Origin: Pecten maximus
Taxonomy: Eukaryota
Length of the DNA stretch: 64,000 nt
NCBI RefSeq assembly: GCF_902652985.1
Contig: NC_047017.1
Location: 6,634,001 to 6,698,000, forward strand
Direction of reading: 5' to 3'
The translations under genes were made by a program, and so were the position numbers. This document shows positions 9,123 through 42,000 of the stretch, piece by piece. The notes below the pieces were generated by a model. The model searched no databases. It was given only the letters and a program-made list of their open reading frames with translations, and had not been told where the DNA came from. The first letter of the stretch is position 1. Every line of letters begins with the position of its first letter.

Positions 9123-9341
9123 GAGAATCTGATATCATAGAATAACAAGCAATAAAAGGAGACAATCAGAATGAACGAATATAAGAAAGATTAAAATAGG
9201 TAATGTTAAGAGCTTACGTTTCCATGTGGAGAACGGATTTCAGAATAAATTTACGAATACAGGTAACTAAAATTTTCTTACGTTGAGAAAGGATCGCTTA
9301 TCTCGACTTAATGATCGCATATCTCGATGTTTCTGCTTTCT

Positions 9342-10402
9342 TTATACGTCATAGATCCTGGTGTAGTCATAGTAACCGATCTTATCCCAGAGGCGACACT
9401 GGTTTCCTCGAATAGCGCTGGTTACACCGACGGTCTGACTATCTGCTCTCAATATCATATGGAATCTTGATCTGAACTTTCTCCAGTCAACCAGTCCATC
9501 ACCTCGGCGATTTGGATTACCATATTTGGCGAAGTTTGAAAAATAGCCACCAATCCTTTTAGCAAGTTTGGCTTCCTCCGCTGTGTGATTGAGATGAAGC
9601 AATTTGAAGATATTAAAGACGAACGGTAGTTCAACTCCGTGGCATACTCTTCCGACGCAATGTGGCAAGTCCTTAAGCAAGTCAGCAGACGAGAGTGCTT
9701 GGTCAAAGAAATACAACCAAGAACTCCCGCCTTTAATTCTTATGTGTTCGGCTACTTTCCTTGCGGGGCAAGTAAAGAGAAAATCAGTTGTGATTTGTGC
9801 AAATACTTCTCGAGCGTCAAAAACGTGCTGTTGACACAAGAAAGAGGATAGTTTGTCACCAGTTCTTGAGCTGTAGGAGCAGGATCAACTCTGTTCACCA
9901 AGGCTCCTCGGACTTTCCCTTGGACTTTAACGTAAGACACAGCATCTTTGTTTTGTCCGAGAAGGAAGCGGACTCCTTCTTCTCTTACCGATCCCAGCAT
10001 CACAGGTTTTGATATTTTTTGCCTTGCTTCCTTGAAGGCATCAACCAAAGTAGCGGGAACCCAGTCATAATCAATCACAGGCCCAATAGGTTCGATAGCG
10101 TTTACGAACTCGCTTGGTCCAATTTTGATTCTTTCAGAGAGAAAGAAGTTCTGAGCTCTCAGTAGGTCGTCACTATCAGCATTGGCTCGCAGACAGGTAA
10201 TCATAACGTCCAAACTATGGATAGAACACCCCAGAATTTGGGCGATGACCTGGGTCTGGAAGAGGGCGCTGTAGTAGGTCTTGAAAGGAATCGTGAATGG
10301 CGCGCTCATCATGATACTCGAGGAAAAGAAATCCTCCGACCTATTATTAGTCATGTGGATACCAACGGACTCAGCACCGTCGCCGTCACCAAAAATCGTC
10401 AC
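9342..10402 (-). CDS. Carboxylesterase-like gene, exon 5 (elbow GDGDG, acid EEG, His CHGVEL, stop); contains a 1-bp frameshift
   Basis: Acceptor ttttgcag|GTG ACG ATT TTT GGT. Corresponds to ORFs 9752..10465 and 9342..9839 in different frames. TAA at 9344-9342. Confidence 0.9.
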
Positions 10403-10898
10403 CTGCAAAATTGTAAATTGAAATCGGCTATAAGAAATACTAACTTTTAGAAACATTCCAGACATTTTGATTATATTTCATGGAAAAGTATGACAGCGTA
10501 TTTGATCACACTATGATACGAAAATTCGATTGTTTATATTTGACATTGGTAAGTGTGGAAAATAATTTCTCCAGGAAACTCGACAATATAGAGCAAGAGG
10601 CCACTTGCAAATTACAAAAAATCACTGCAGATAAGACATTGGAAAGTTCCCGTTTTCACAACGCATAGTTGGAACACTTTGGCTGAAAAAGTGGTATCGT
10701 CCTGTATACTCAATGAACTTAAATGAAACCTTAAAGAGCAATGGAGAAACCAGTCTATAAAATTCAGACCAGTTGCAACCCGGATATGCCAGAACCAGAA
10801 AACAAAAATGTGATTGGTCAGAGCGGCGGTCGCTGATAAAAGACATCAAAGAAGGTAACGGGTGAATATAAGTGTTAATGTTAGTTATGGCTGTTTTA

Positions 10899-11087
<189 letters not shown>

Positions 11088-12008
11088 TTAAACGTGTTAT
11101 CAAAGTTCCTTTAATGAGACAACATATGATTAACAACTTGTCTTATATCATTGAACTGTTATTGTTTGATAGATATCTATTCAAATGATTTGTTTTTTTT
11201 CTAAATATAAAAATAGAACATTTGGTTACAGATTCCTGATAATCCAAAATGCAGTATAAATCAATCGCGGAATCTAGACTGATTCTGTCAAATTTCGGAA
11301 TCAAATTGGGGTTGCTAAGCGATGGTTCTATCATGTGAGCTATACGGACTTGCGGGAATGTGAAGTTTATGTTATAATTTAGAGTCAGTCTAGTTAATGC
11401 TTAAATTGAAATGTTTTATCAACTACGTTTTTTCAATTTTTCTTTACCAGCGCATAGGAGGACCACTTTTTAAGAATAGGATTTTAGTTGACTTTTGGTA
11501 CATAGAATAAAATAAAAAATTTGTAAAAGTTGGTCTTCCGATGCGCTTTATGTCAAAAAATGATTTGAATGCGGGAAACGCCCTATGATGCAACATACTA
11601 ATGAACAAACTAATTTTTCGCAAATAATTTTTATTTGTTATAGATTGAAGATTTGTATTCCAAAACTCAGTTTTCAACATTTATTTTTTGATTTTGAAAA
11701 CGGTCACCGTTAAGTCGGAACAGGCCAATATGCGCCATACCTCTTTGGGAAAAGCGCTTACATTTTGGAGTGCCAAACAAGTACGTGTAAAGTATTGTTA
11801 CATATATGACAAAATGCACGTTTATCACATATCTATTTTATTAACCATCAAGTTTGAATCTGGATTATATAATGTAATCTATGTTAGTAAATTGTTCCGT
11901 AATTTGTGACGACTCGGTCGCGAGAATGAATGGTCGAAACCAGTCATACGTGTTCTCAGTCTTTTATACCGCCAAGTGAGTATCTACACAGCAATAAATC
12001 ATACAAAC

Positions 12009-12201
12009 CTAAACGGTAGTTGATTGTCACTACGATAACGTCGCCCTTCTCAGCCAGAGTATTTCCGAAATTGACCGGCGCCAGACCAGTGCCGCGGACA
12101 AACGATCCACCGTGGATGTAAACCATGACAGCTTTCGGGTGGTTAGTCGAGCAGGCGTTGATTGGCGTGAAGATGTTTAGGTAAAGACAGTCTTCAGAAG
12201 T
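12009..12201 (-). CDS. Carboxylesterase-like gene, exon 3
   Basis: acacag|ACT TCT GAA GAC TGT...CGT TTA G|gtttgt; reads TSEDCLYLNIFTP...HGGSF...TINYRLG. Confidence 0.92.
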
Positions 12202-12382
12202 CTGTGTCAAAGAACATTTTAATTCAATAACAAAATTAAACAATCTATCAATGAAAACGTTATCTCTAACTGAAATGAATAACACAAGTTATGTACGAAA
12301 CAAAAATATTCATATTTTGCATTTGTTACATTATTGAATTTTAATTCCAGTTAAAGATTTGTTTAAGAAATAAAAATCGTAC

Positions 12383-12498
12383 CGAATTGATGCAGAACAG
12401 CCTATCATTACAGGGGTTCTGTTTACACATCGGCTTCAAAGAGTCTGCAATTAACGTAGTCTCCTTCAAATTTGTCCGGATGAACAGGATCTCTGAAC
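12383..12498 (-). CDS. Carboxylesterase-like gene, exon 2 (116 nt; contains a 1-bp frameshift)
   Basis: ctctag|G TTC AGA GAT CCT...AAT TCG|gtacga. The entry frame gives RFRDPVHPDKFEG and the exit frame gives TLIADSLKPMCKQNPCNDRLFCINS, both family-like. Confidence 0.8.
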
Positions 12499-13224
12499 CT
12501 AGAGCACAAAATGATGCCATACACTCACGGTTTACTTAAATATTGGTGGACTGACACATGCCTAGTAAACTTGAGGTAAGTATTTAACATAAATAATTCA
12601 CTCATTGGAGAAGAAAGATTGCAAACATATTTATTTGATTCATAAAAATATGGAATGTTAAAAAAGATGGTTTTAAGATATGAAACTGTTGTTAGTGGAA
12701 CTTTCGTATGCAACTCGTTTACGCAGGAACACAAATAATGAAGGAAGACATTATTTTAGTATCGTGCCCTGAACGGGCATCGAACTCACGACCTACAGGA
12801 ATAATTTATCATGAGAAAAATAGCCACGGCTGCTACCATGTCGATATCTCTAGATGCCTGATATTTTGTCATGCTTAAAGCTGAATATTTATCAGATTAT
12901 GTGAAAACAAAGATCGCAATACCTAGTCAGAGCACGTGACAAAAAGGTCTTCCTTTGACAGTTGTGTGTCAGCTGTATATACATGCTTATCAAAACAATT
13001 TGTCATTTGTATTAAGTTTTGGTAGAAAGGTTTGATAGAAGTACTTAACAAACATATGTATTGCATTGGTCTTGTTACACCCGGATTCTGAGTAAGGTGA
13101 AAACATTACAAAATTTATCATGATATACAATTATAAGTTTGTAATAATTAACATATACGACTATCGTTAGCAAGGAAAACACATGTTTTATCATTACGTA
13201 AATGTATGTTTCAATTTGAATTAC

Positions 13225-13394
13225 CTTTCCGGTGGCTTGGCATACGGAATTCCAAGGAAGACATTGACCTTAGTTTTCTGGTTTCCTATGATCTTACCCA
13301 GTGGTGTACTAACATGAACAGATCTAAACACTTTTGCTTTCAAGCAGGTCCCAGCAAAGACCAGCATCAGGCACAGAAAATACATGGATGCCAT
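13225..13394 (-). CDS. Carboxylesterase-like gene, exon 1 (signal peptide to GIPYAKPP)
   Basis: ATG at 13394; MASMYFLCLMLVFAGTCLKAKVFRSVHVSTPLGKIIGNQKTKVNVFLGIPYAKPPE; donor AG|gtaatt. Confidence 0.9.
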
Positions 13395-13502
13395 CGCGGT
13401 CACTCCACAGGAATCGTCTCAGAGAGTAACTTGTCCTAGATGTCGCGTATTCGTCAAGAAAGGTCTGTGTGTGAGGATGTCCTGGCTGCTCTTTAGCTTT
13501 GA

Positions 13503-13510
13503 CTTATATA
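13503..13510 (-). promoter_or_regulatory. TATA box of the carboxylesterase-like gene
   Basis: Minus strand reads TATATAAG about 110 nt upstream of the ATG. Confidence 0.5.
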
Positions 13511-16500
13511 AGAAGTTTGGGGTCACACATGTTTCAGTACCGGCTGCATCATTATATAAAATTCATCAAAAAATATATTTACAAATTAAGAAAACAGAAC
13601 AGCTTTATCAACCCGTCTGGCACTTTAGAATCTTAATATTATTTTCAAAATGATTAATCTTAAACGATTTTTGATTGACGACGTATTTATCGCCAACATA
13701 TGTTTCCATAAAAAAGGTCCCTATTTTAATATTAACATTTTGTCGTAATGTAATTTTGGGGAAAAGTTAAAGATAACTTAATTGTTAAATGGTTGTTACA
13801 CATTGTATACCACAACAATCAACAGTAATTATCCCTGCACACTCTACATACACAGATGTATTTCCATATCCAAACTAATGGCAACCCCCCCCCCCCCCCC
13901 CCCCCATCATTTGCATCCCTACAATATTGGAACTTAATAAAATAATTAAACTCTATAAACATGTTTGTATTCGTGCCACAGCATTACCTGTCCTCCAAGA
14001 TAAATATGAATCTATTTTTAATTTGCTGAGAACATAAGTTTTAGAGCTATCTTTTTACATTCAAGTTAACAGTATGTTTTGGTGGATAACCTTTCTTCCA
14101 TAGAAATAATGATACAGATGCTATGTTCGTATATAGAGTTTTTCATTTGTATTTTCTATTTTTGATTTGGCATAAAAGGTGTTATTCTATCAATAGCTTT
14201 TTCATGAACACCAACGACATTTCTTTTCCACATTGTCACAATCTTAAAAGGGAAAATGACGAGAGAAGGTAAAATTTGAGAATTTAGAATATCGACTACT
14301 GAAAGTATCCCAAAAGAAATTACGGAAAGCGACAACCGTATCTGACAGGTCATATTGTCATGTCAAGTGAAGGTTCAAAAGTGTTTTGAGGACCAGCCAT
14401 TTGGCTACCATTATACCTTCCTTAAGCACAATATACATCCCTTAATCAATCTTTTGTTCGACAACATACATTATTATTTACTTTCAGATAGTTAGAATCA
14501 CCTAAATAACAAACTATATAAGATATATATTAGTCTATGTTGAAGAACGTCTGATTGTCTAAGTCAGTAAATTCAAACCAGCCAGAACTGTTCATGAAGT
14601 TAGGATATCGTGGACAATCGACTGATTCCTGTTCTCCTCGAAGTATCGGTACAAATCCTCCTCGAATAAGTCCAGGATCATTTGTGGACAGGCGTCAAGC
14701 AGACACCAAGAGTAGAAAAAACAGAATGAAAGTGTCAAACAAGAACAAAAATGAGTAAAACCTGGATATTTTTATCATTTCTTTGTATTGCCTTATTTCC
14801 TTATAATCATCTTTTTTCTATGATTTTCTTTCCTAATGTCTCATTGACTTACATTGTATGACCTAATCTGACACTGACTGATGCGAGGACCCTAAACCTC
14901 ATATTCTTTGAGGGAAAATCCAGTCATTGCCGATACCTATCCCATAGTATTTTAAGAAAATATTATAAGATTTTTATATTTACTTTATGAAATTGTTTTT
15001 ATTGACATTCATAATTTCTTTGTCATTTGCTCTAGTCTTGTTGTTGATTTGCATTTGTTAAAAAAATCATTATTACAATTTAAAACTAATAACTTTCTTT
15101 TAACATTTCTTTTCATATTTACATAAAAAAGTATTTTTTTCTTAATTCTATATTTCTCCTTGTTAGAATAATTATTTTCGTTGTTTTAAAAAAACATTTT
15201 CAGCGGCTCTTTTGTCGGTTCTTCATATCTTCATAACTGGACTATATTATGTGACTATATTTGGGCATGTTGTGTTACACGTTTTTGGTCGCCTCCTTTA
15301 GCATTACTGATGAGCCCTGGAAGTTTGAAACAGCAGCATGGTGCAGTTTTAATTAATTTTCGCTGTAATAGATCTAACACTCAATTAGTTTTGAAAGGTG
15401 CCAACATTTTGTGTGTCATTTGTACAATTCCTTGCATTTTTTTTTTTTTTACTCCAAATGCATTGGTGGCAATTTTTTTTACCGAGCTGATTTGATTAAT
15501 ACTTTACACTGTCATTCTTTTCAATGTGCATCTATCATAGTTGGTACGTGAGGTGTGTGGGAGATCATTACAGCTGGCGTTGCGTCGTGTGGTAGACAAT
15601 ATGCTTATAATAACCGAATTGTAGGCTAGTATTCGTAATGTTTTTGTCAATTTACTCCGCATTTGTACATTAAGACACTTTAATTAGTTACCTCGTTCTT
15701 GTTTGATTAATGTTCTTGTATGTTGTATATTAATTCACAAGCAACCGGATGATGAATAAAAACAATATTTTTTTATAATTCACAAAAATCAAGTCATGTA
15801 TCATCAAATTATTAATTGCTCAATTTAGATAAATTGCTGAAAAATGTTTTCTTCTTTTTCTTTCAGTTTTTAAGCCAAACTTGGTAATTTAGATTGACTG
15901 ATTTTGTCGCATGCCAAAAAGTTACATGACAGAGATAAACTTCTCCTAGCAAGATATAGTCTAATAAGAATATATTTCTACCTCAAACTCATTGCAACAG
16001 AATAGATTTGATATATCTTACAAAATACAGCGACTAATGAACAAAATTATAAATATCTGCAGAAATTTGAATTAGAGAAGGTGTCTTAATAAGCGATTGA
16101 AAATCGTTATATTGGTGCGAGAGCTGTACGGCGTGTACAGTCATATTTCATTAACGGAACTATTTTTTTGTTAGAAAAGTAATTGAAAATAACACGCATG
16201 TTAATGCTTAAAAAATAAAACTTTTCGATCAAATCTGTTATTACCCTGGTTAAAATGACTATTTTGGTGGAGATGTGTGCTTGTTAGGACTCGGTTGTGA
16301 GAACTGTCACAAAAATCTGAAACATCGTTTATCAATCTCTGCTTGTGTCTAAAATTTTGTAAACGTCCTTTAAATGACCTTGATGCCAAACTAATGAACA
16401 ATATGGGATTGATATCAACAACAAGCATTCATTTTATCTTCTTGATGAACAATTTTGGGACAATTATAGAATTCAGAAGATTTTTCAATCGTCTGTTCGC

Positions 16501-17715
16501 AAGTTGCGCTGGACGAAGCTGCCAAGATCGGCATATCTTCGCCAGTGTCTCTAGCCATGTTGTGCTCATCGTAGAAAAGAAATCTTAAACCGGCGCCTGT
16601 CGAAGAGTTACCTACACCGAGGATCCTGAAGAGTATTATGGTATTTTTCGACATACTTTTGGTCCCGGATATGACGCGACAGGTGGCGTTACTGGTCAAG
16701 ATGACGCATGTGATTGGTCAATGTAGTGGTAAATGCAAAATGCAGTTATGCAGTTAAAAACGAAACAAAGTTAAGATTGAATGCAAGCTGAATAAGTGGT
16801 TGTATCTTTTCAAATGACACATTGATAAGATTATATTCCTTATTCAAATGCAGTCTTATTATCACCAAAAATGATTCAAACTGATATAATTTTGTTATCC
16901 GTTGTTGAAGCGCATTAGTTGATTTATTTCACCAGCAGTTTTACATTTTATAACCACCAGCATTAAAACTATGCCGTTTGTCTTTTTTAAAGCTATGTCT
17001 TGTTTGATGTGTCTTTTTATGTTTGTGAGCCAACTGTATAATGCAAACGATCTGTCTGAATTACAATTCAGTCTGGGATGCTTCTGTCACATAGATTTAA
17101 AAGATTTAAAGAATTAATTTCAAATTTCTTATTGTAATTAAATATCAATGTGCTGCTCCCATTGAGATGTGTCTAGTCCAAAACATTTGACACCGATTCC
17201 GACTCTCCGTATCCTCTACCAATCCTTGTATTTACCTAATAAAACACACAAATCTAGCGCTATGAACATGGACGATGGTTTTTATGATAACTGAAGACTT
17301 GTTATCATATTAAATATTCATATGTAGCATTTGATGTCCTTAGTTTTGCACACATACTTCGAAGTTTACTGGACAATAAATACAGTGTGCACAGATATTC
17401 ATGATGCTATTGGGCTTTCGTTAGACACAATCAAAGATGCACCAGACTTGAAGAAGCCGAGGTACATTACGAAGAGAGAACCCAACAATCCACTACATGC
17501 AATCTATCAATGATTTTTTTTTTCAGGTTTGCGTGCATAGTTTTATGTTCCTCTGATAAAACAGTGGTTTGTAAAATACGTTCGTGTTTTGCTTTCGTGC
17601 TCGATGTGACTGGGAATGTAGGTAAGCAACAGACAGTATCTATTTGGTAAAGGTGCATACCAGTCTATGTGTTCAGAATATCATCGTAATATTATTCTCT
17701 AATGGTTATCATTCC

Positions 17716-18520
17716 TGTTGTTTTGTGGCATGTTGAGGCTGTGCTATATGTTTTGTGGTGTGTTGATGCTGTGCTATGTTTTGTGGTGTGTTGATGCTGT
17801 GCTATATATTTTGTGGTGTGTTGATGCTGTGCTATATATTTTGTGGTGTGTTGATGCTGTGCTATATATTTTGTGGTGTGTTGAGGCTGTTCTATATATT
17901 TTGTGATGTGTTGAGGCTGTTCTATATGTTTTGTGGTGTGTTGAGGCTGTGCTATATATTTTGTGGTGTGTTGAGGCTGTGCTATGTTTTGTGGTGTGTT
18001 GAGGCTGTGCTATATATTTTGTGGTGTGTTGAGGCTGTGCTATGTTTTGTGGTGTGTTGAGGCTGTTCTATATATTTTGTGGTGTGTTGAGGCTGTGCTA
18101 TATATTTTGTGGTGTGTTGAGGCTGTGCTATGTTTTGTGGTGTGTTGATGCTGTGCTATATATTTTGTGGTGTGTTGAGGCTGTGCTATATATTTTGTGG
18201 TGTGTTGAGGCTGTGCTATATATTTTGTGGTGTGTTGAGGCTGTGCTATGTTTTGTGGTGTGTTGATGCTGTGCTATATATTTTGTGGTGTGTTGAGGCT
18301 GTTCTATATATTTTGTGATGTGTTGAGGCTGTTCTATATATTTTGTGATGTGTTGAGGCTGTTCTATATATTTTGTGATGTGTTGAGGCTGTTCTATATA
18401 TTTTGTGATGAGTTGAGGCTGTTCTATATATTTTGTGATGTGTTGAGGCTGTTCTATATATTTTGTGGTGTGTTGAGGCTGTGGTATATGTTTTGTTGTT
18501 TAGTCACGCTGTGCTATATG
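17716..18520. repeat. 28/30-bp minisatellite (TTTTGTGGTGTGTTGAGGCTGTGCTATATA), about 27 copies
   Basis: Direct tandem repetition; source of the spurious FCGVLRLCY ORFs. Confidence 0.95.
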
Positions 18521-20495
18521 CCTTATCAATTTTTTTTAAATTTTTTTTTGTCAATTCCCATTGGTTAAAAACAGATAACATGAACACCTATCAAAATAAT
18601 TTTGACCGCTGCTTCTAGAAAAAAAAAGTTTACAAAAACAGTGTATCGTACGGTTATAATTAGAAATCTGTATTAGATAGCTCTAACAAGGTCGCTCAAT
18701 ATCACTGACCGTTTCAAACAAACGTTTCTCTGACCCGGACATACTGTAACCTTTAACGAACGGAGATGGCCGACAAAATTGTCAAACTCATGTGCAACTA
18801 AGTATATATGGACCTTGCCAATAACTACATTCATAAGTTATATAATCATTATATGTACATCAGCCTGATTAATTATCACATTCAAACGAGTATAATGAAA
18901 TACTGATTTTAAGTGTTATATTATCCAACCCATCCCACTTTCTGATTTCCCACAAAATTAAAAAAAAAATGATAAAGCAACTACATGTAATGCATTTAAA
19001 TATCAGTTTATACATGGTTAAATCGACCTCATCAAAATTATATTTTTCATCATGTATATTGATGATTCAGCATATTTTTGGGTTGTGTAGCGACATGTTG
19101 GGGCATGTAACATTGTCAAAGTATATAATCCATTGTTTTGTTTTTGTTAAGGATTTCTGTCTTATTCGTCAAAATAGAGATCCAATTTATAAAAAAAATA
19201 AAAACAAAAGGAAACTTTCAGAGTAACTGGAATGCCATTTTATTTGTAAGTAAACTACGAAAGTGTACAAAGTCGGTACCCTCCTCTCAGGAGGAACCAC
19301 GACGGGAACTCGAAACCCTCCATCCGGCAGCACAAATCATTATAATCAAATACGGAATATAATTACGAGTTTCCTGTAAATAAAAAAAAAATCTATGAAT
19401 GATATTTTATTAACTTTTTCAAATACATCACGACTTCTTTTCATTTTTCAAATTATCCGTCAATTTAGGTGACAGTTGTGTCCCAAATTATACGATGAAT
19501 GACCAAGAGGATTTAGATTTGCTCAATGCGAAAAGATAGAATGATGTGTTGTGTTTGAGGATCCTTCCATTCGGAAAACCTCTTGATAATGCATCTACTT
19601 TTCGTTGCAATCATAATACCGTACTTCGAACTACGAGAATGATTCACAAATACAATTATAATGCTTGTCGCTTTGTTCATTCATGGCAATTACGCGGGGG
19701 AAGACAAAACACATCGCGAATTAATTTTTTTTTATGAATTAAAATGAAATAAGATGATAATTGAAAACTCATTATTGAACAGCATGTCTCAACATTTAAA
19801 CCAATGCCAACGTACAATGTACAATTTATATCATCTCCCCTTAATTTATGATGATGATAATAATAATATTGTATCTACATATACCAGAGAGAGAATTTAC
19901 TGCAGTTGTACAAAAATGCAAAAATGCCAAAAAAAAATGTGGTAGGTATGCCTGCATTGAAATGCAACGTCACATCATGTATAAATTATACAATAAAATA
20001 TTAAAATCGTGTAATAAAACATCCCTCGTTAAATCTTCTCTTTGTGGTAATAAAACCTCCAGCCGTGAAGAAATCGGAAATGAAGATGCTTTAAAATGTT
20101 CACGAAGGAAAAATCCAAAATGGAAATAACTAAATAAGGATGTCAACTCTTCCACGGACTAGATGTTGTAAGAGTTACTTCCCTTAGAACGACATTCTCT
20201 AAATTCTCTAATAATGGTAATACAAAGGTGAAAAAAATCCTCGTTTTCCCCGAAATTATCTTATTGCATAGTATCCAGTGGGATCAATTAATTACGTATT
20301 AATTAGATTAAAATGTTAAATAATTTACTCGAAAAGACAGCTATGTTGTCTGTGCGATTGTAAAGCTACAAGATCAATTGAAGAGAGAAAGAACGATGGA
20401 TAAAAAACAATATGATGACAAGTCTTTGAAATCTCGAGACCAGGTAACGGGTGGTCACGTGACATCATTCCGCTCCAGCAGCTTGGCATGTTATG

Positions 20496-21063: not shown

Positions 21064-24000
21064 AGAAAAAACTGAAAAGAATCAGAAAGAAAAAAAAGAA
21101 AAGTAAAAAGGAAAGAAAAAGAAAGAAGGAAAGACGGAGAGAAAGATAGAAACTTGCAAACGATGAAATAAATAAATTTAGAAACGCCGATGGAAACGAA
21201 ATAAATTGAAATCCGATATGGACAGGACATACCCAGGTCCTACTTACCGACGTAATTGATTTGACCGTCACCGTCCAGGTCGGCCGCCTTCATCATATCA
21301 TCTATATCCTTGTCATTAATCCGTTCGCCCATAGACTTGAGTACCTGTCGGAGTTCGGATGCACTGATCACCCCGTCCCCATTCTGGTCCATGGCTTTAA
21401 AGGCGTCTACATATTCCTTTTTTTCTAGATCCGACGTCAATCGTTTAGACATCATTACTAGAAATTCGTTAAATTCGATCGTTCCGTTTCCTGGAATATA
21501 AAGAAAATTAGTTTAGAATTGATTGATAGAAATAAAACAGATTAGAAAGAAATGACTACAGTGTCAAAACGGTCGGGGAACATGGAAAAAATTCAGTTAA
21601 ATTTAAACAAATTAAAAGATGTAAGTAGTGTTATACACAGGCAATATTCCTTCACGTGAATTTCACGTGAAAAAAATTCACGTGAAATTCACGTGTAGAA
21701 ATATTGCCTGTGTATCATAAAAGGTTTTGAAATCTGCTTCTGATAGTTTTGATAAATAACAAAGAAAAATGACAACAAACCTGATTTAACAAGAATACGG
21801 TGTTGAATCTATACAAAATTATGGCATGGATTGGAATAAGTGAAAAACGGATGAGACATTGGTTATTTAAATTGGTATTAGTCAAGGATAACTCCAACAA
21901 CACATGATGTTGCTGAAAGATTGGTTGAACACTAATAGCACGGTAAACGGTTCTTATCGCTACGTCGGAACTGTATTGCATGTTTTAAACTGTTCAGTGG
22001 CGTCGTGAAGATAGATTTTTTTCGACATTCCTGACCATACATAAACAGGTAAATTAACTCATTTTACAATCCAACTCCGAGTTTCCAAACATATCGCGGC
22101 CATATTTGAAATACGAATCACGTGATTAAAGTCTCACAGGAAGTCATTTCCAGCATAAAGAATTAGCCTGGGTCACGCGAGATCTCGTCCGGTCATATGA
22201 ACGCAATAATTACAAATATGGTCACGAAATGTTTGAAAACATGTCAAAGTGTTCATTTTCCTTATTTTGTAGATGTTTCTATTCTAAACTAGTAAGACGT
22301 TTTAATAAAAAGTGCCCGTTAAAGATAGGAATACACACACAACCCAAGTTGCAATGACTGATAATTTAATAAAAAGTTGGGAATTCCTGTCAATGAACAT
22401 TTCAAAATGAAAAAAAAAGAAGTTTGTTTCAAAGATATATTATATCAGAGAAATAGATTACACAAAAAAGGTACAACGCATTTTGTCTATAGGGAAAAAA
22501 CTGCCATGATGTCATGACACCATCGAAGGTGTAATTAGGACCCCAGGCGCCATCTGTAAATCTGTATTTAGGAGAACACAATCAATTCTAATCAGATATC
22601 ATTTTTTTCCCGCCAGACGACTTCGTTCTCACCGACTCTGTGAAGTATACCTCTCCAAGGATCACTCATGTTAAAAATAAGACGCGGAGAAACTTTTTAG
22701 TAATTAAATTATGATCGTCTGTGACGGTATCGGTAACTCTCTAGCGACTATTTATCTTAGGTTGTGTCAATAGTGCGAGTCCTGTCACCGGTGATGTCAA
22801 AGACTAGTACTTTTACCTCGGTGTTGACCTACTGTAAAACAAACATTTTCGTGATTTTTATTTTTTTAATTTTTTTTTCAAGACACGATAATTAAATCAA
22901 TGTAAACATATAGTTTTTATTTTAAACCATCCAATGGGAGTGACGAGCGTGCATTTAAACTTGTGTGTTTTTGAACATTTGTTCAGGCACATCTAAAATG
23001 TAAAATTCGTAAATTCCTTTTTGATTACTCGAAAATAAAGTCTCGCGAATAAGTCTAACGAAGCAGTATATCTACATCGGGAAAAAAAGTCACGATTCGT
23101 AAATATATATAGATTTTTTCGATTGTGCTTTTTTGCGATGGGGTTAATCTTTTCATTTTCATTTGTTCAGTTTGAGGTTCGCTATTTCAAAGAAACCACG
23201 GGGAACAAAATATTCTCCGAGTTGTTCTAAAACAAAACTTTTACTTCGTATACATTATATCGTAGAGATATAATCATAGGGAGAGACTCTATATTTCAGC
23301 TAAAATGAAACATTTTTAACAAGCCGCTGAAATGTCACTGACAATTAAGTAATTTAATATCACTTTCCCTTGTTTCCTCTATTGTGTGACTTTTAGCTTT
23401 GAGGGAATTTGTCATGTGAGCAATATCAATTTGCTTGCAATTGTCAATATTACGGATCGGTAGGCTTTGTTTAATTCTGACAGCATTTTATTGATTTTAA
23501 ACAGAAAATAAACACATTCTACAATTTCTGCACACAATAACGACACTGTGAACATCTTCAGTAAACAATTTCTAGTTTAATTGCGATTTGGTACAATTGA
23601 TTCACTTAAATAAAAATCGCGCATGCCTAATCATGTATCGATGCTCCCAATAGACATTTCCCTGTGTACAAATATAAACCCATCAAAATTCAATATAAAT
23701 GTCCCATCAAAATTGCAAGCAAAGCACATGTCAATATAGACAAATGTTAGATAAGTAGGTTTTTACAAAAACTTCAATCCTATATCTGACGGCTGTCTAA
23801 ATGTTGGTGAAATTTCTACTTAACTAGATACTTTGGTACCAGCTGAATATTTCTCATTTCTCACCTGCCAAAAAAAACTTATTAAAATCATATTTTACAT
23901 TTTGTATGTATGATACGAAACATGGATTGAAGTACAGAAAACATAATGAGTTTGATTTTAATTATATTTCGCCACCTACCGTCCGCGTCCACTTCGTGAA

Positions 24001-27000
24001 TCAAGTCCCGTAACTCTGTATCGGTTGGTGTGTGCCCCATGGACTTGAGTACGACTCCGAGTTCAGAGGCGGTGATTCGACCGTCTCCATCCTTATCGAA
24101 CATGTAGAAGGCCTCACGGAGCTCTGAAACAGAAACAGTCAATTATAATGAATCATGTCAACAATTAGATTTCTGGTTTCTTTCATGCCATGATTCCTTG
24201 TACAAATGACGCACACTCGAAACGTTTTAGTATCATTTCTCTCCGCCTGCCGAGCTTGTTATAACATCAAAGTCAGTGATTTTAACTTATTCTAATTTAC
24301 TCGGAACTCCTCGAACGTAGCTAGATAGATTAGGTTATCCGTCTTAGTACTATTTCTCACCGCTAGGTTGCTCTCATTAATACTAGTACTATGTATTTCC
24401 ATTCGGCAAACTTCGGCTGGGTACAGGAATCTGACAAGGTTTTACGAATGACTAAAGCAGGCAGGTCAACTTAAAGCGCCAACTATATAGCGACTATGAT
24501 TTAACTATAGTAGAAGCGAACTCACTTTGGTTACATGTTATATGCATGTGTAGAGAAACAAAAAGTTACGGGGGCTAAAATTTATTAGAATCCTGGGTAT
24601 ATTGCTGAATATGCATGCAAATTAACTATTTTCCTGTACAGACATATTAGAAACTCAAAAAAAGTAGGTTCTCGTTGAGATGGAAGACATGAGTTCACTG
24701 AAGAGCGTTATTCTTTGTTCAGCATAAGTATTACAGTTACAAAGGGAACAAAGGGCGTCTTCGACCGGAAAGTATGAATGACAACGTTGATCAGCAACAA
24801 GGTTGCCTCTAAATAAGCGATTTCCTAATGTACTAGGGAACAACCAACCAATTGAAAAAATATATTTTTGAAACAGCCCCTGTGTATAGAACGTTGAGCC
24901 AAGGATAAAATGTCTGGCAGCCACTGATTGGCCAGTATGTTATGAAGTGAGAAAATAGATATGTAGCCTGATAGGTAACTATCAATAAGAAATGTTGATA
25001 TAAATTTCTTAAGTCCGATTGGTTTTTTTCCCAAAAGTTCACGTAATAATAGTAAACAGGTAAACATTTAAGATTTTTGAGAATTTTTACTGCGAAATTC
25101 ACCTATTTTCAAAATGGCTACCCTGGAGAAAATTTGAGCTGAAGGACCCAACTTTTTTTTTTGATTAGGTGTTATATCAGACCCTAAACTTTTGTTATAA
25201 ACCATAATCGTCATATTCAATTCAAGAATTTGAATGAAATAATCCAAAACGTTAACACTAAGGTCTATGGGAAAACAATTGGTTGGTTGATCTCTACTAG
25301 CATGGTTTCTTAATCCTGTATGCAGAATATCATTTTTTCTTTCGCCATAGTAATACAAGTTTGGTATCCCAATGAATGGAATTTTGAAAAGCAGAAAATG
25401 ATACACTGTGTCTGATGTTTAAATGCAATATATTCCACTGTCTCATAGTAGAGGGAAAGAAGGGTTGATTAGAGGATTCAAGTCTGTTGTTCAGCAAGTT
25501 ATATTTTCCAGAATTACGGAGATTGTGTTGAGAATTATTAGCAACAACAGGAGGGAGTATGGTGTTCTGATAGTTAGAAGGACAATGTTTGTGCATCTTA
25601 AAAAAACAATTAGAGTTTTCGACGGGATCGTCTCTGGGCTAAAGTCTCCCAACCGTTTTAGTATAGAGTGATTGTCTGCTTGTATAAGAAGTAAAGTTAG
25701 TGACTATGCGGCCAGCCTCGTTGTAATTTTTCTAACCTTTCCCCGTCAGCAATAGAGCAACAGTCCCAAAGATCACAATATTCTAAAACTGGAAGAAGTA
25801 AGGATCTATATATTCTATTTAATGTTCTTCTAGTAAGATTTTGATTTACGAAGGATACCTAAGTGTTTTGCGACTGTTTTCAATGATGTGTTCTATATGA
25901 AAGCTCCACTTACAATTTGTATCGATATATACATGTACTCCTAGATGCATATGATAGTTTACAAATTCAATACTTACATCATAAAAAGTATATCAATCAC
26001 ATGACCTAGTTCACTATTAGAGAAGAGCAATGCCTCAGTTTTTGAAGGATTGAATTTAAGCAAACATTTCTTTCACGATTGTATTTTGGAAAGATAATTA
26101 TTTATGGTATGTTCAATAAGTTACAGAGATTTATCGGAGAATGAAAAAGATGTATCTTCAGCAAAACGTTATGAGAAGCTAATACATTGTCGGTTATATC
26201 ATTAATATATTTTGATGAATAAAAGTGGGCCAAGGATGGAGCCCTGAGAAATCCCACGTAGGATTCGAACTCGCGTCGTGATAAAAATTTATTGAAAGAC
26301 TAACCCATTAGCCCACTCGGCTAAAGTAACCTTTTATAAAACGGGTGAATATTAGATATATAAAATTGTTACAGCCGTGACTCCCGACCGTGCACGAGCG
26401 TGGGTTATTGGAAAATAATACATGGTTTTAAACCAATCAAAACTGGCGTTGCATAGCAAACATGGTAGAATATTATATAATGTACAAAAAAAAAACGTGT
26501 TTCTTATCAGACACATTATCCATCAACCAGTCCAGCAACATGCCTGATATACCATAACTCCTTAGTTTCACTTCCAATCCTCTGTGCCAAAGCCTTGGAA
26601 ATATCACAGAAAACTAGACAGGTAAGTTGTTTTCCCCATATTTTCACATATCTTAAGGTACATTTCTATGAGCTAGGGAACATTGAAATGACCCGAGGCG
26701 TGTTGAGGATTACACGCGCTCGCGTGACAATAAATCGACGATCCTGAACGGTAGCGTGCGCAAGCATGCGCATGAATTCAAAATGGCGGCCTCCATTGTA
26801 TGTAAACAGCGTAAGGTACATTGTGAGGTGATTGTTATTGAAAAAAATCATTTAAAGTGCATGATTGTCGTTATTTTTAACAGTAAATCCTACGAATCGG
26901 AATGACAGTGGTCATCGATTTCACCGGTCACATAAAATGCGTATGATAATCTTCTGTCATCGCTTTTTAAAGTCAGGTTTTTTGTGTTCAATACATTGGA

Positions 27001-39000: not shown

Positions 39001-42000
39001 TACAAAAGTATCATCATTTAAAATTACAAAGGCATTAACGCGAACGGGACCATGTCGTTCCAAACACTAGCATAGTTAGTACAGGCTAGTTTTAATTGGT
39101 TTGAATGCCTTTTGTGCTTCTGTCCAAACAATATATCAAATGCTACAATCTTACGATACAAATCGAATTTCTATTAACCTACATAAGCATTCTATGTTTT
39201 AATTATGTAGAAAATGTTCATTTTCAGAGCAAACATGAATATCTTTAAAGTTTGTTAAGTTGTCGCTGTGCTGTGGATCCAGTCCAGGAACTATTGATTT
39301 TTTTTATCCAAAACTTGTGAATGGAACACTTTGTATTTTTTTCAGCGAGAACGCCCGAGCGAAAATAATGGCAATTTTGATAGCTTTGTAGATAAGAGAA
39401 ACCGAATCGTTTTCATGGTGTAGTGTTTTTCCCTTGTGTCTGTCGACAAATAATTGTGGGGCGTTGTGCCGACTGTCACATGTTATGTTATTTAGATCAT
39501 CCATCATCAAATTTAAACTTAAAGTCACAGAAAAAACCAAGAGCTTAGAAACCAAACTGCAACACAGGGCTTAAAAATGGTAAAAAAAGTGAAGTACGTT
39601 ATATTCTTGTTGCTAAAGTATGAAATTTGACTTTTAATCTTGTTTTCCTTCCTTTTCTTTTAATACCAACTATTTCTGATGTTGTCTTCCCTTTTGTTTT
39701 GGACATCCAATGTTCCGGGGTTGATTTCGCTTTATATATATGGTGTAGAATCATGTTATGGTATTCCCTCTATATCTATGGTATAGAATCATGTTATGGT
39801 ATTCCCCCTATATCTATTGTATAGAATCATGTTATGGTATTCCCTCTATATCTATGGTATAGAATCATGTTATGGTATCCCCCTATATCTATGGTATAGA
39901 ATCATGTTATGGTATTCCCCCCTATATCTATGGTATAGAATCATGTTATGGTATTCCCCCTGTATCTATGGTGTAGAATCATGTTATGGTATTCCCCTAT
40001 ATCTATGGTGTAGAATCATGTTATGGTATTCCCCTATATCTATGGTGTAGAATCATGTTATGGTATTCCCCCCTATATCTATGGTATAGAATCATGTTAT
40101 GGTATCCCCATATATCTATGGTGTAGAATCATGTTATGGTATTCCCCCCTATATCTATGATATATAATCATGTTATGGTATCCCCATATATCTATGGTAT
40201 AGAATCATGTTATGGTATCCCCCTATATCTATGGTGTAGAATCATGTTATGGTATTCCCTCCTATATCTATGGTGTAGAATCATGTTATGGTATTCCCCC
40301 TATATCTATGGTGTAGAATCATGTTATGGTATTCCCCCCTATATCTATGGTATAGAATCATGTTATGGTATCCCCCATATATCTATGGTGTAGAATCATG
40401 TTATGGTATTCCCCCTATATCTATGGTGTAGAATCATGTTATGGTATTCCCCCTATATCTATGGTGTAGAATCATGTTATGGTATTCCCCCTATATCTAT
40501 GGTATAGAATCATGTTATGGTATCCCCCTATATCTATGGTGTAGAATCATGTTATGGTATTCCCCCCTATATCTATGATATATAATCATGTGATGGTATC
40601 CCCCTATATCTATGGTATAGAATCATGTTATGGTATTCCCCCTATATCTATGGTATAGAATCATGTTATGGTATTCCCCCTATATCTATGGTGTAGAATC
40701 ATGTTATGGTATTCCCCCCTATATCTATGGTATATAATCATGTTATGGTATCCCCCCTATATCTATGGTGTAGAATCATGTTATGGTATCCCCCTATATC
40801 TATGGTGTAGAATCATGTTATGGTATTCCCCCTATATCTATGGTGTAGAATCATGTTATGGTATTCCCCCTATATCTATGGTGTAGAATCATGTTATGGT
40901 ATCCCCCCTATATCTATGGTGTAGAATCATGTTATGGTATTCCCCCCTATATCTATGGTATAGAATCATGTTATGGTATTCCCCCTATATCTATGGTGTA
41001 GAATCATGTTATGGTATTCCCCCCTATATCTATGGTGTAGAATCATGTTATGGTATCCCCCCTATATCTATGGTGTAGAATCATGTTATGGTATTCCCCC
41101 CTATATCTATGGTGTAGAATCATGTTATGGTACCCCCCCTATATCTATTGTATAGAATGATGTTATGGTATCCCCCCTATATCTATGGTGTAGAATCATG
41201 TTATGGTACCCCCCCCCTATATCTATTGTATAGAATGATGTTATGGTATTCCCCCTATATCTATGGTGTATAATCATGTTATGGTATTCCCCCTATATCT
41301 ATGGTGTATAATCATGTTATGGTATCCCCCCCTATATCTATGGTGTAGAATCATGTTATGGTATTCCCCCTATATCTATGGTGTAGAATCATGTTATGGT
41401 ATCCCCCTATATCTATGGTATAGAATCATGTTATGGTATCCTCCCTATATCTATGGTGTAGAATCATGTTATGGTATCCCCCCTATATCTATGGTGTAGA
41501 ATCATGTTATGGTATTCCCCCCTATATCTATGGTGTAGAATCATGTTATGGTATTCCCCCCTATATCTATGGTGTAGAATCATGTTATGGTATCCCCCCC
41601 TATATCTATGGTGTAGAATCATGTTATGGTATTCCCCCCTATATCTATGGTATAGAATCATGTTATGGTATCCTCCCTATATCTATGGTGTAGAATCATG
41701 TTATGGTATTCCCCCCTATATCTATGGTGTAGAATCATGTTATGGTATTCCCCCCTATATCTATGGTATAGAATCATGTTATGGTATTCCCCCTATATCT
41801 ACGGTGTAGAATCATGTTATGGTATTCCCCTATATCTATGGTGTAGAATCATGTTATGGTATTCCCCCCTATATCTATGGTATAGAATCATGTTATGGTA
41901 TCCTCCCCCCTATATCTATAGTGTATAATCATGTTATGGTATTCCCCCTTACATCTATGGTGTAGAATCATGTTATGGTATCCCCCCTATATCTATGGTA

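Follow-up and report, generated by a model that had tools for sequence, protein, structure and literature searches.

We analysed a window of 64,000 nucleotides of Pecten maximus DNA, and a COesterase gene was located on its minus strand. The gene spanned 13394-9342 in five exons, and all four introns were of the GT-AG type (Table 1). PF00135 was matched in order by five of five pieces (exons 1, 3 and 4 and both halves of exon 5), which covered profile positions 3-37, 82-142, 144-184, 185-328 and 378-515, and the PF00135 assignment in the ESM Atlas agreed. The N-terminal half of exon 5 was modelled as a 194-residue piece with a pLDDT of 83.9 and a predicted strand-turn-helix at the elbow. The best structural match of this model was butyrylcholinesterase (E 2.6e-8, TMq 0.69). 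A high-copy repeat was observed within intron 3 (11258-11990; summed contig depth in thousands), and a weaker repeat was present in intron 1 near 12728-12874. The nearest coding neighbour seen was a calmodulin-like EF-hand gene with exons at 21243-24142 on the minus strand, which is usable as a synteny anchor. Long tandem repeat arrays at 17700-18600 and 39800-43500 gave spurious open frames on both strands.

Table 1. Features of the COesterase gene, in window coordinates.
Feature	Position	Strand	Remarks
TATA-like TATATAA	13504..13510	-	~110 bases 5' of ATG; consensus match only
Exon 1, coding part	13225..13394	-	ATG, hydrophobic leader (putative signal peptide), start of COesterase domain; PF00135 E 6e-6
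Exon 2 (116 bases)	12383..12498	-	contains frameshift 1
Frameshift 1, four extra bases	12449..12452	-	in X1 and X3 contigs; absent from X5; X2 contigs do not cover
Exon 3	12009..12201	-	SEDCLYLN and oxyanion loop HGGSF (12100-12114); PF00135 E 6e-21
Exon 4	10923..11056	-	PF00135 E 3e-16
Exon 5, coding part	9342..10402	-	elbow to stop, contains frameshift 2; PF00135 E 5e-19, 6e-21
Altered elbow GDGDG	10376..10390	-	GGT GAC GGC GAC GGT; butyrylcholinesterase has GESAG
Gly at nucleophile position	10382-10384	-	residue 209
Asp at +1	10379-10381	-	residue 210; third oxyanion residue, Ala -> Asp
Triad Glu, kept	9977..9979	-	E344 of GSVREEG, on Glu325 of butyrylcholinesterase (GVNKDEG)
Frameshift 2, homopolymer one base short	9819..9823	-	X1 as window; X2 and X5 one base longer
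Triad His, kept	9639..9641	-	subfamily motif C-x4-CHGVEL
AATAAA	9117..9122	-	~220 bases 3' of stop; consensus match only

The preliminary description of this DNA had given the repaired protein 557 residues, and this was corrected to 556 residues in the frame of the other alleles. The window protein, read through with X at both breaks, has 555 residues, and the residue numbering follows this version. It was basic overall (pI 8.76) and carried four N-glycosylation sequons. The leader, judged from the hydrophobic N-terminus alone, is likely a signal peptide. No 19-residue hydrophobic stretch above 1.8 was found in the window protein, which meant that no membrane segment was seen. Its C-terminus was TRIYDV, where the esterase domain ends, with no KDEL-type end, and its Cys residues fell on conserved columns of the family. 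These features were consistent with the earlier account of a putative signal peptide, paired cysteines and neither a transmembrane nor an ER-retention tail.

Exon 5 starts with VTIFGDGDGAESVGIH (10402-10355, minus strand), immediately 3' of a TTGCAG acceptor. This start aligned without a gap to VTLFGESAGAVSV/AASV of butyrylcholinesterase, also given as VTLFGESAGAASV, which placed Gly on Ser198, Asp on Glu197 and Asp on Ala199. The G-x-S-x-G nucleophile pattern of active serine carboxylesterases was absent and GDGDG stood instead. The alignment confirmed GDGDG with Gly on the catalytic Ser, as had been described from the sequence, and the triad acid (GSVREEG), the His (CHGVEL) and the oxyanion loop with its Gly-Gly (HGGSF) were all present as claimed. 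In cholinesterase chemistry, the acyl-enzyme cannot form without the nucleophilic Ser. Two of the three clustered changes in the preliminary description were unusual (S209G and A210D). However, Asp208 was not, since abalone proteins that keep the Ser also have an Asp preceding the nucleophile (GDSAG; 2 of the 190 rows with Ser). Asp at +1 occurred in none of the 190 Ser-bearing and none of the 15 Ser-less rows, and position 213 was variable among relatives. Human BChE with changes at Ser198 or Ala199 (Ala199Val) is silent, according to the accessible part of PMC4108472. The same two positions are altered in the window gene. The silent human variants are rare and arise in an active gene, whereas GDGDG appears common to the alleles compared here. 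No mention of S198G in BChE was found in the literature searched.

Homologues were sought with HMMER among 1.84 billion representatives, and 254 matches were obtained. The best was P0003 (~39-40% identity, E 1.6e-31), an exon-5-like frame carrying GQSAG. Another match, P0005, was a Mizuhopecten protein present as a partial 252-residue model. When P0003 and P0005 were searched against the window's genome, each scored top on the window gene (two pieces summed). HMMER gave no orthologue of more than 41% identity among the representatives, and a close orthologue retaining GDGDG was found in none of the representative, word-index and metagenome searches. When the exon 5 piece was used as query in two word-index searches, none of 1501 and none of 124 candidates matched. 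The metagenome scan gave one locus among 164 stretches, and this was rejected: it lay in a microbial contig and matched over 10 residues by chance. Such blanks do not imply absence, as records of the own genome or close to it may have been omitted.

Most named matches were 'cAMP-regulated D2' or 'crystal protein-like' proteins of molluscs, echinoderms, hemichordates and fish. By sequence, the gene belongs to this subfamily, in which it nests among so-named proteins and has the C-x4-CH motif and common introns; these names come from automatic annotation, and the tree is without the Dictyostelium proteins. This supported the D2/crystal-protein-like placement made earlier, as did the intron places. 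Members such as Haliotis XP_071096518 and those of Saccostrea, Ptychodera and Amphiura share C-x4-CH before the triad His and, like the window gene, have a leader without a membrane anchor. Nearly all members carry G-[QE]-S-A-G, whereas the window gene carries GDGDG and has at most 41% identity to any of them. Several carps showed a different elbow, SESAG, in their D2-like proteins (P0018, P0184-P0191), in which the first Gly is replaced by Ser; Cirrhinus has GESAG. The subfamily is named for Dictyostelium D2 and crystal protein. The accessible part of PMC2116030 reports a hydrophobic leader on the crystal protein and crystals of D2 and crystal protein in ER vesicles. By analogy, these crystals hint that the subfamily may serve as structural material. 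No animal substrate for the subfamily was found in the literature searched.

The window's genome gave 85 PF00135 matches. No second copy of the gene was found in it, and none of 35 paralogous frames was Ser-less, in a set that leaves multi-exon neuroligin-type genes outside. D2-like paralogues on C9 and C11 had the same intron places as the window gene, and both carried GQSAG. In the C9 paralogue, the Ser codon was AGC and the next codon GCC, one base each from GGC GAC, and this paralogue grouped with Pinctada and Tegillarca proteins (100/99), which identifies the genome as bivalve. Intron 3 of the C11 paralogue (G000:C11, L050:2382-4122) held ~43 copies of a 41-base minisatellite, the unit of which is the exon 3 end plus the splice donor, hence many donor-like sites in the intron. 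On C1, C14, C18 and C15 of G000, large tandem clusters of intronless carboxylesterases were observed with GESAG. Their Ser codon is TCN, whereas the cholinesterase-like genes and the D2-like gene on C9 use AGY.

We surveyed the elbow in 150 representatives. Nine of more than 900 residues were dropped, and 135 of the remaining 141 covered the elbow. Ser was present in 124 of the 135 and absent in 11. Ten of these 11 were of the GDGAG, GDGSG, GAGAG or GAEAG type, and all the named ones were gastropod. The preliminary description had overlooked this Ser-less gastropod clade with G-D-G elbows in the same subfamily. Its rows were P0009, P0011, P0020, P0029, P0036, P0048, P0056, P0073, P0110, P0179, P0180 and P0182, with P0028 added by motif. 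The clade spans heterobranch and caenogastropod snails, with GDGAG (Aplysia XP_005113083), GDGSG (Plakobranchus GFN98787, Elysia KAK3705315), GAGAG (Batillaria), GAEAG (Babylonia XP_076471174) and GEEAG elbows. The proteins contain low-complexity insertions and are annotated as esterases nonetheless. They resemble the window gene in subfamily, in loss of Ser, in having no clear membrane anchor and in the heterobranch G-D-G. However, they lie on a separate branch with low-complexity insertions and no Asp at +1, and some have lost the His or an oxyanion Gly, both of which the window gene keeps. As a pseudo-enzyme family, this clade is of greater age than the window gene and has the stronger support. 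No paper on Ser-less D2-like esterases in molluscs was found in the literature searched.

In a FastTree of 200 rows, the window gene fell inside a 39-row clade. The tree was refined with 36 of those 39 rows (three near-duplicates omitted) and 8 outer rows, and the elbow columns were removed. The window gene, P0003 and P0005 came together (100/98). The neighbouring 16-row clade (96/90) consisted of Ser-bearing abalone proteins and the 12 Ser-less rows (100/99), and the two groups were neighbours on the tree (91/89). The minimum number of changes of the Ser state was two. A forced grouping of the window gene and the 12 Ser-less rows was rejected (AU p 0.018; 0.0003 with P0005 added). The Ser loss in the window gene therefore looks independent of the gastropod clade, since the nearest relative P0003 has GQSAG and the AU test gave p 0.018, but it is not unique. 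An independent loss of catalysis had been proposed before, and P0003, the two changes on the tree and the AU test supported it. The branches of the window gene, P0003 and P0005 were long (0.7-0.9 changes per column; window end branch 0.8), so the grouping needs denser sampling.

Conservation was scored at 60 columns with a conservation of 90% or more across 120 relatives that have the Ser, and the window protein covered 59 of them. It kept 57 of the 59, and the two misses were the adjacent elbow residues S209G and A210D. Active relatives missed 0-5 of the covered columns. At the 80% level, the window protein kept 85 of 95, similar to active relatives. The remainder of the gene was thus well preserved, as had been described. 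Long neutral decay is excluded, because other conserved columns would have been hit. The clustering of changes, which had been taken as a sign of remodelling, was no proof of it, since one slip could suffice. Given the Ser change, a second random change would fall at +1 with a chance of 1/58 and at any other conserved elbow position with at most ~5/58. AGC GCC to GGC GAC requires two base changes, and a single multi-nucleotide slip in the apparent GGTGAC six-base repeat could yield both elbow changes.

Alleles were compared over 9200-13600 using short-read contigs of four DNA runs (X1, X2, X3, X5; three samples, three studies). X1 and X3 are one sample, perhaps the source sample of the window; the contigs are independent assemblies of reads. 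The contig-window differences listed were 11 of 13 for X2, 6 of 10 for X3 and 4 of 53 for X5. Divergence from the window was 1.0% for the X2 allele and 2.6% for the X5 allele. Among the differences listed, no change was found at 10376-10390 in any of the four runs. The X1 contig over 9942-10549 showed a single difference from the window in 608 letters. This was fewer than the 3-4 changes between GDGDG and GESAG/GQSAG, which indicated that the motif was not an assembly error. X1 contigs aligned ungapped to the window over both breaks and the elbow, and X3 contigs over break 1. Among 24 runs, none with RNA was listed as carrying the gene, which tells neither way.

Spliced as it is, the window allele runs into a stop at 12425-12423 and gives an 81-residue product. 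Exon skipping was ruled out as a rescue, given the 116-base length of exon 2 and the position of the second break in the last exon. The frameshifts were not fixed in the species, with break 2 missing in X2 and X5 and break 1 missing in X5. The restored base at 9819-9823 was the only gap of the X2 contig, which meant that exon 5 of X2 is in frame. X5 lacked both breaks and, on the differences listed, likely represents a wholly intact allele. The window carries a segregating null allele with two disabling frameshifts, neither of which was found in all samples. Since the frameshifts segregate, a point that the preliminary description had missed, the gene is likely dispensable, at least in heterozygotes. 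The break-free alleles had no listed elbow change, and the elbow change is therefore likely older than the frameshifts, which agreed with the order proposed in the preliminary description. In exon 5, the listed differences between the window and X2 were 5 synonymous and 4 replacement (pN/pS 0.23-0.29, p 0.03-0.07). When two further X2 differences were taken as replacements, pN/pS was 0.35-0.44 with p 0.08-0.15 (9-11 differences in all). Over all exons, the 13 differences listed were 6 synonymous and 7 replacement, and three of these 7 fell in residues 20-25, at the leader end. The allele pN/pS leans toward constraint, and this is only suggestive.

We favour, with a probability of about 0.55, a dispensable secreted pseudo-esterase, of which the unbroken alleles would be folded and non-hydrolysing and the window allele null. 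Ser would have been lost in the lineage of the window gene after the split from its Ser-bearing sister, and the neighbouring oxyanion position would then have been free to change. The fold would have been kept by selection, and the gene may now be of little need, which would let null alleles persist. The product of an unbroken allele would be secreted and folded, and the old substrate pocket would hold a small ligand that it cannot cut; an extracellular scaffold would be an alternative role. Our preferred guess is that the protein sequesters, in secretions, an ester that would once have been a substrate; sequestration has also been proposed for triad-mutant silkworm esterases. That 57 of 59 columns are kept along an end branch 0.8 changes per column in length argues for the pseudo-esterase, as do the existence of alleles that lack the break in exon 5 (X2, X5) or in exon 2 (X5) and the unchanged elbow among the differences listed for all four runs. 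The low chance of a second hit in the elbow, the exon 5 pN/pS against X2, the modelled fold of the exon 5 N-half and the silent human BChE variants point the same way. The long-lived gastropod clade indicates that the fold can persist without Ser. Against it, two frameshifts lie on one assembled sequence, which requires a long-lasting null haplotype, and the clade member from Mizuhopecten is itself the partial 252-residue model. The searches without a close orthologue carrying GDGDG, the weak pN/pS signal and the single slip that could explain both elbow changes also count against it.

Recent pseudogenisation is a serious competitor, though a less probable one. A secreted esterase would have lost its Ser lately, drifted to high frequency and begun to gather frameshifts, and the conservation would reflect its past as an enzyme. 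The route would have been either one transition from AGC or a multi-nucleotide slip that changed Ala too. The two segregating frameshifts, the AGC GCC of the C9 paralogue at one base each from GGC GAC, the GQSAG of the nearest relative and a worst-case pN/pS not clearly below 1 fit this course, and the 85 PF00135 matches make redundancy plausible. However, the other 57 conserved columns were undecayed and all four splice pairs were intact. Alleles 1.0% (X2) and 2.6% (X5) apart had no listed elbow change, and exon 5 showed a synonymous excess among the differences listed (p 0.03-0.07).

The cation binding raised in the preliminary description is improbable. D208, D210 and E213 with E344 and H457 would form an acidic site that binds a cation such as Ca2+, in a setting such as shell, byssus or mucus. 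The Asp at +1 is peculiar to the window gene among the Ser-bearing (0/190) and Ser-less (0/15) rows. A secreted D2-annotated gene of the oyster mantle responds to low pH by a fall, as the available part of 10.1101/2023.01.19.524809 reports, and is likened here by annotation name. However, cholinesterases are already acidic at 208, position 213 varies freely, the net gain over GESAG is one acid and the pI is 8.76, and the proposal was not supported. Slightly less probable again is a hydrolase of altered chemistry, in which Asp210 or water would attack in place of Ser, aided by the kept His-Glu pair. The Asp-nucleophile alpha/beta hydrolases are the model for this reading, and the window gene retains the His, the Glu and the oxyanion GG alongside a new Asp at the elbow. 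However, the ungapped alignment sets Gly, not Asp, on the nucleophile, Asp210 is off the small-x-Nu-x-small pattern, and several Ser-less gastropod proteins also keep the His. One ancient Ser loss common to the gastropod GDGAG/GDGSG clade, which would make a single pan-molluscan pseudo-esterase, is very improbable. Both elbows start with G-D-G and the two clades are neighbours (91/89), but the window gene is joined by P0003, which has the Ser (100/98), and the gastropod clade by abalone proteins that also have it (96/90), and the AU test rejected the joint grouping without (p 0.018) and with P0005 (p 0.0003), in a test that shares the model's bias on long branches. That the motif or the frameshifts were assembly errors is hardly credible: frameshift 2 sits in a homopolymer, but the X1 contigs, from possibly the source sample, match the elbow and both breaks ungapped, as does X3 at break 1.

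Neuroligins have Gly at the nucleophile position. Neuroligin, gliotactin, neurotactin, glutactin and the thyroglobulin ChEL domain have the cholinesterase fold without a working triad, according to the accessible part of PMC5943944. These proteins lack the catalytic Ser, as the window gene does. However, the window gene is without their TM segment and cytoplasmic tail, and it is young, confined to a single lineage and present with null alleles. It scored 32 bits against neuroligins, below 43 bits for butyrylcholinesterase, in a score that ranks only and with trees without a verified neuroligin. The window gene is not a neuroligin-type protein, as it has no membrane segment. In the silkworm alpha-esterases, triad changes occur in 15 of 55, of which 11 are expressed and 2 are called pseudogenes, and sequestration has been proposed (PMC2784812, accessible part). 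They resemble the window gene as fast-evolving carboxylesterase paralogues, whereas the silkworm set is an insect alpha-esterase clade and the window gene a secreted D2-like bivalve gene.

Non-catalytic cholinesterase-fold proteins are already known, and triad loss in fast-evolving paralogues is frequent. A wider proposal is doubtful, namely that molluscs made soluble non-catalytic D2-like proteins at least twice via G-D-G, once in a widespread gastropod clade and once more in the bivalve lineage of the window gene, that the bivalve +1 Asp might form a new ligand or cation pocket and that the null alleles might act as a natural knockout. If the gene is dying, it would represent ordinary turnover in a large esterase family. 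If the intact alleles are expressed, it would be a young soluble cholinesterase-fold pseudo-enzyme, at an early stage of the neuroligin/gliotactin route, with an active sister to compare it with and natural null alleles in which a phenotype could be tested. The Ser-less D2-like members may point to a non-enzymatic role of the subfamily.
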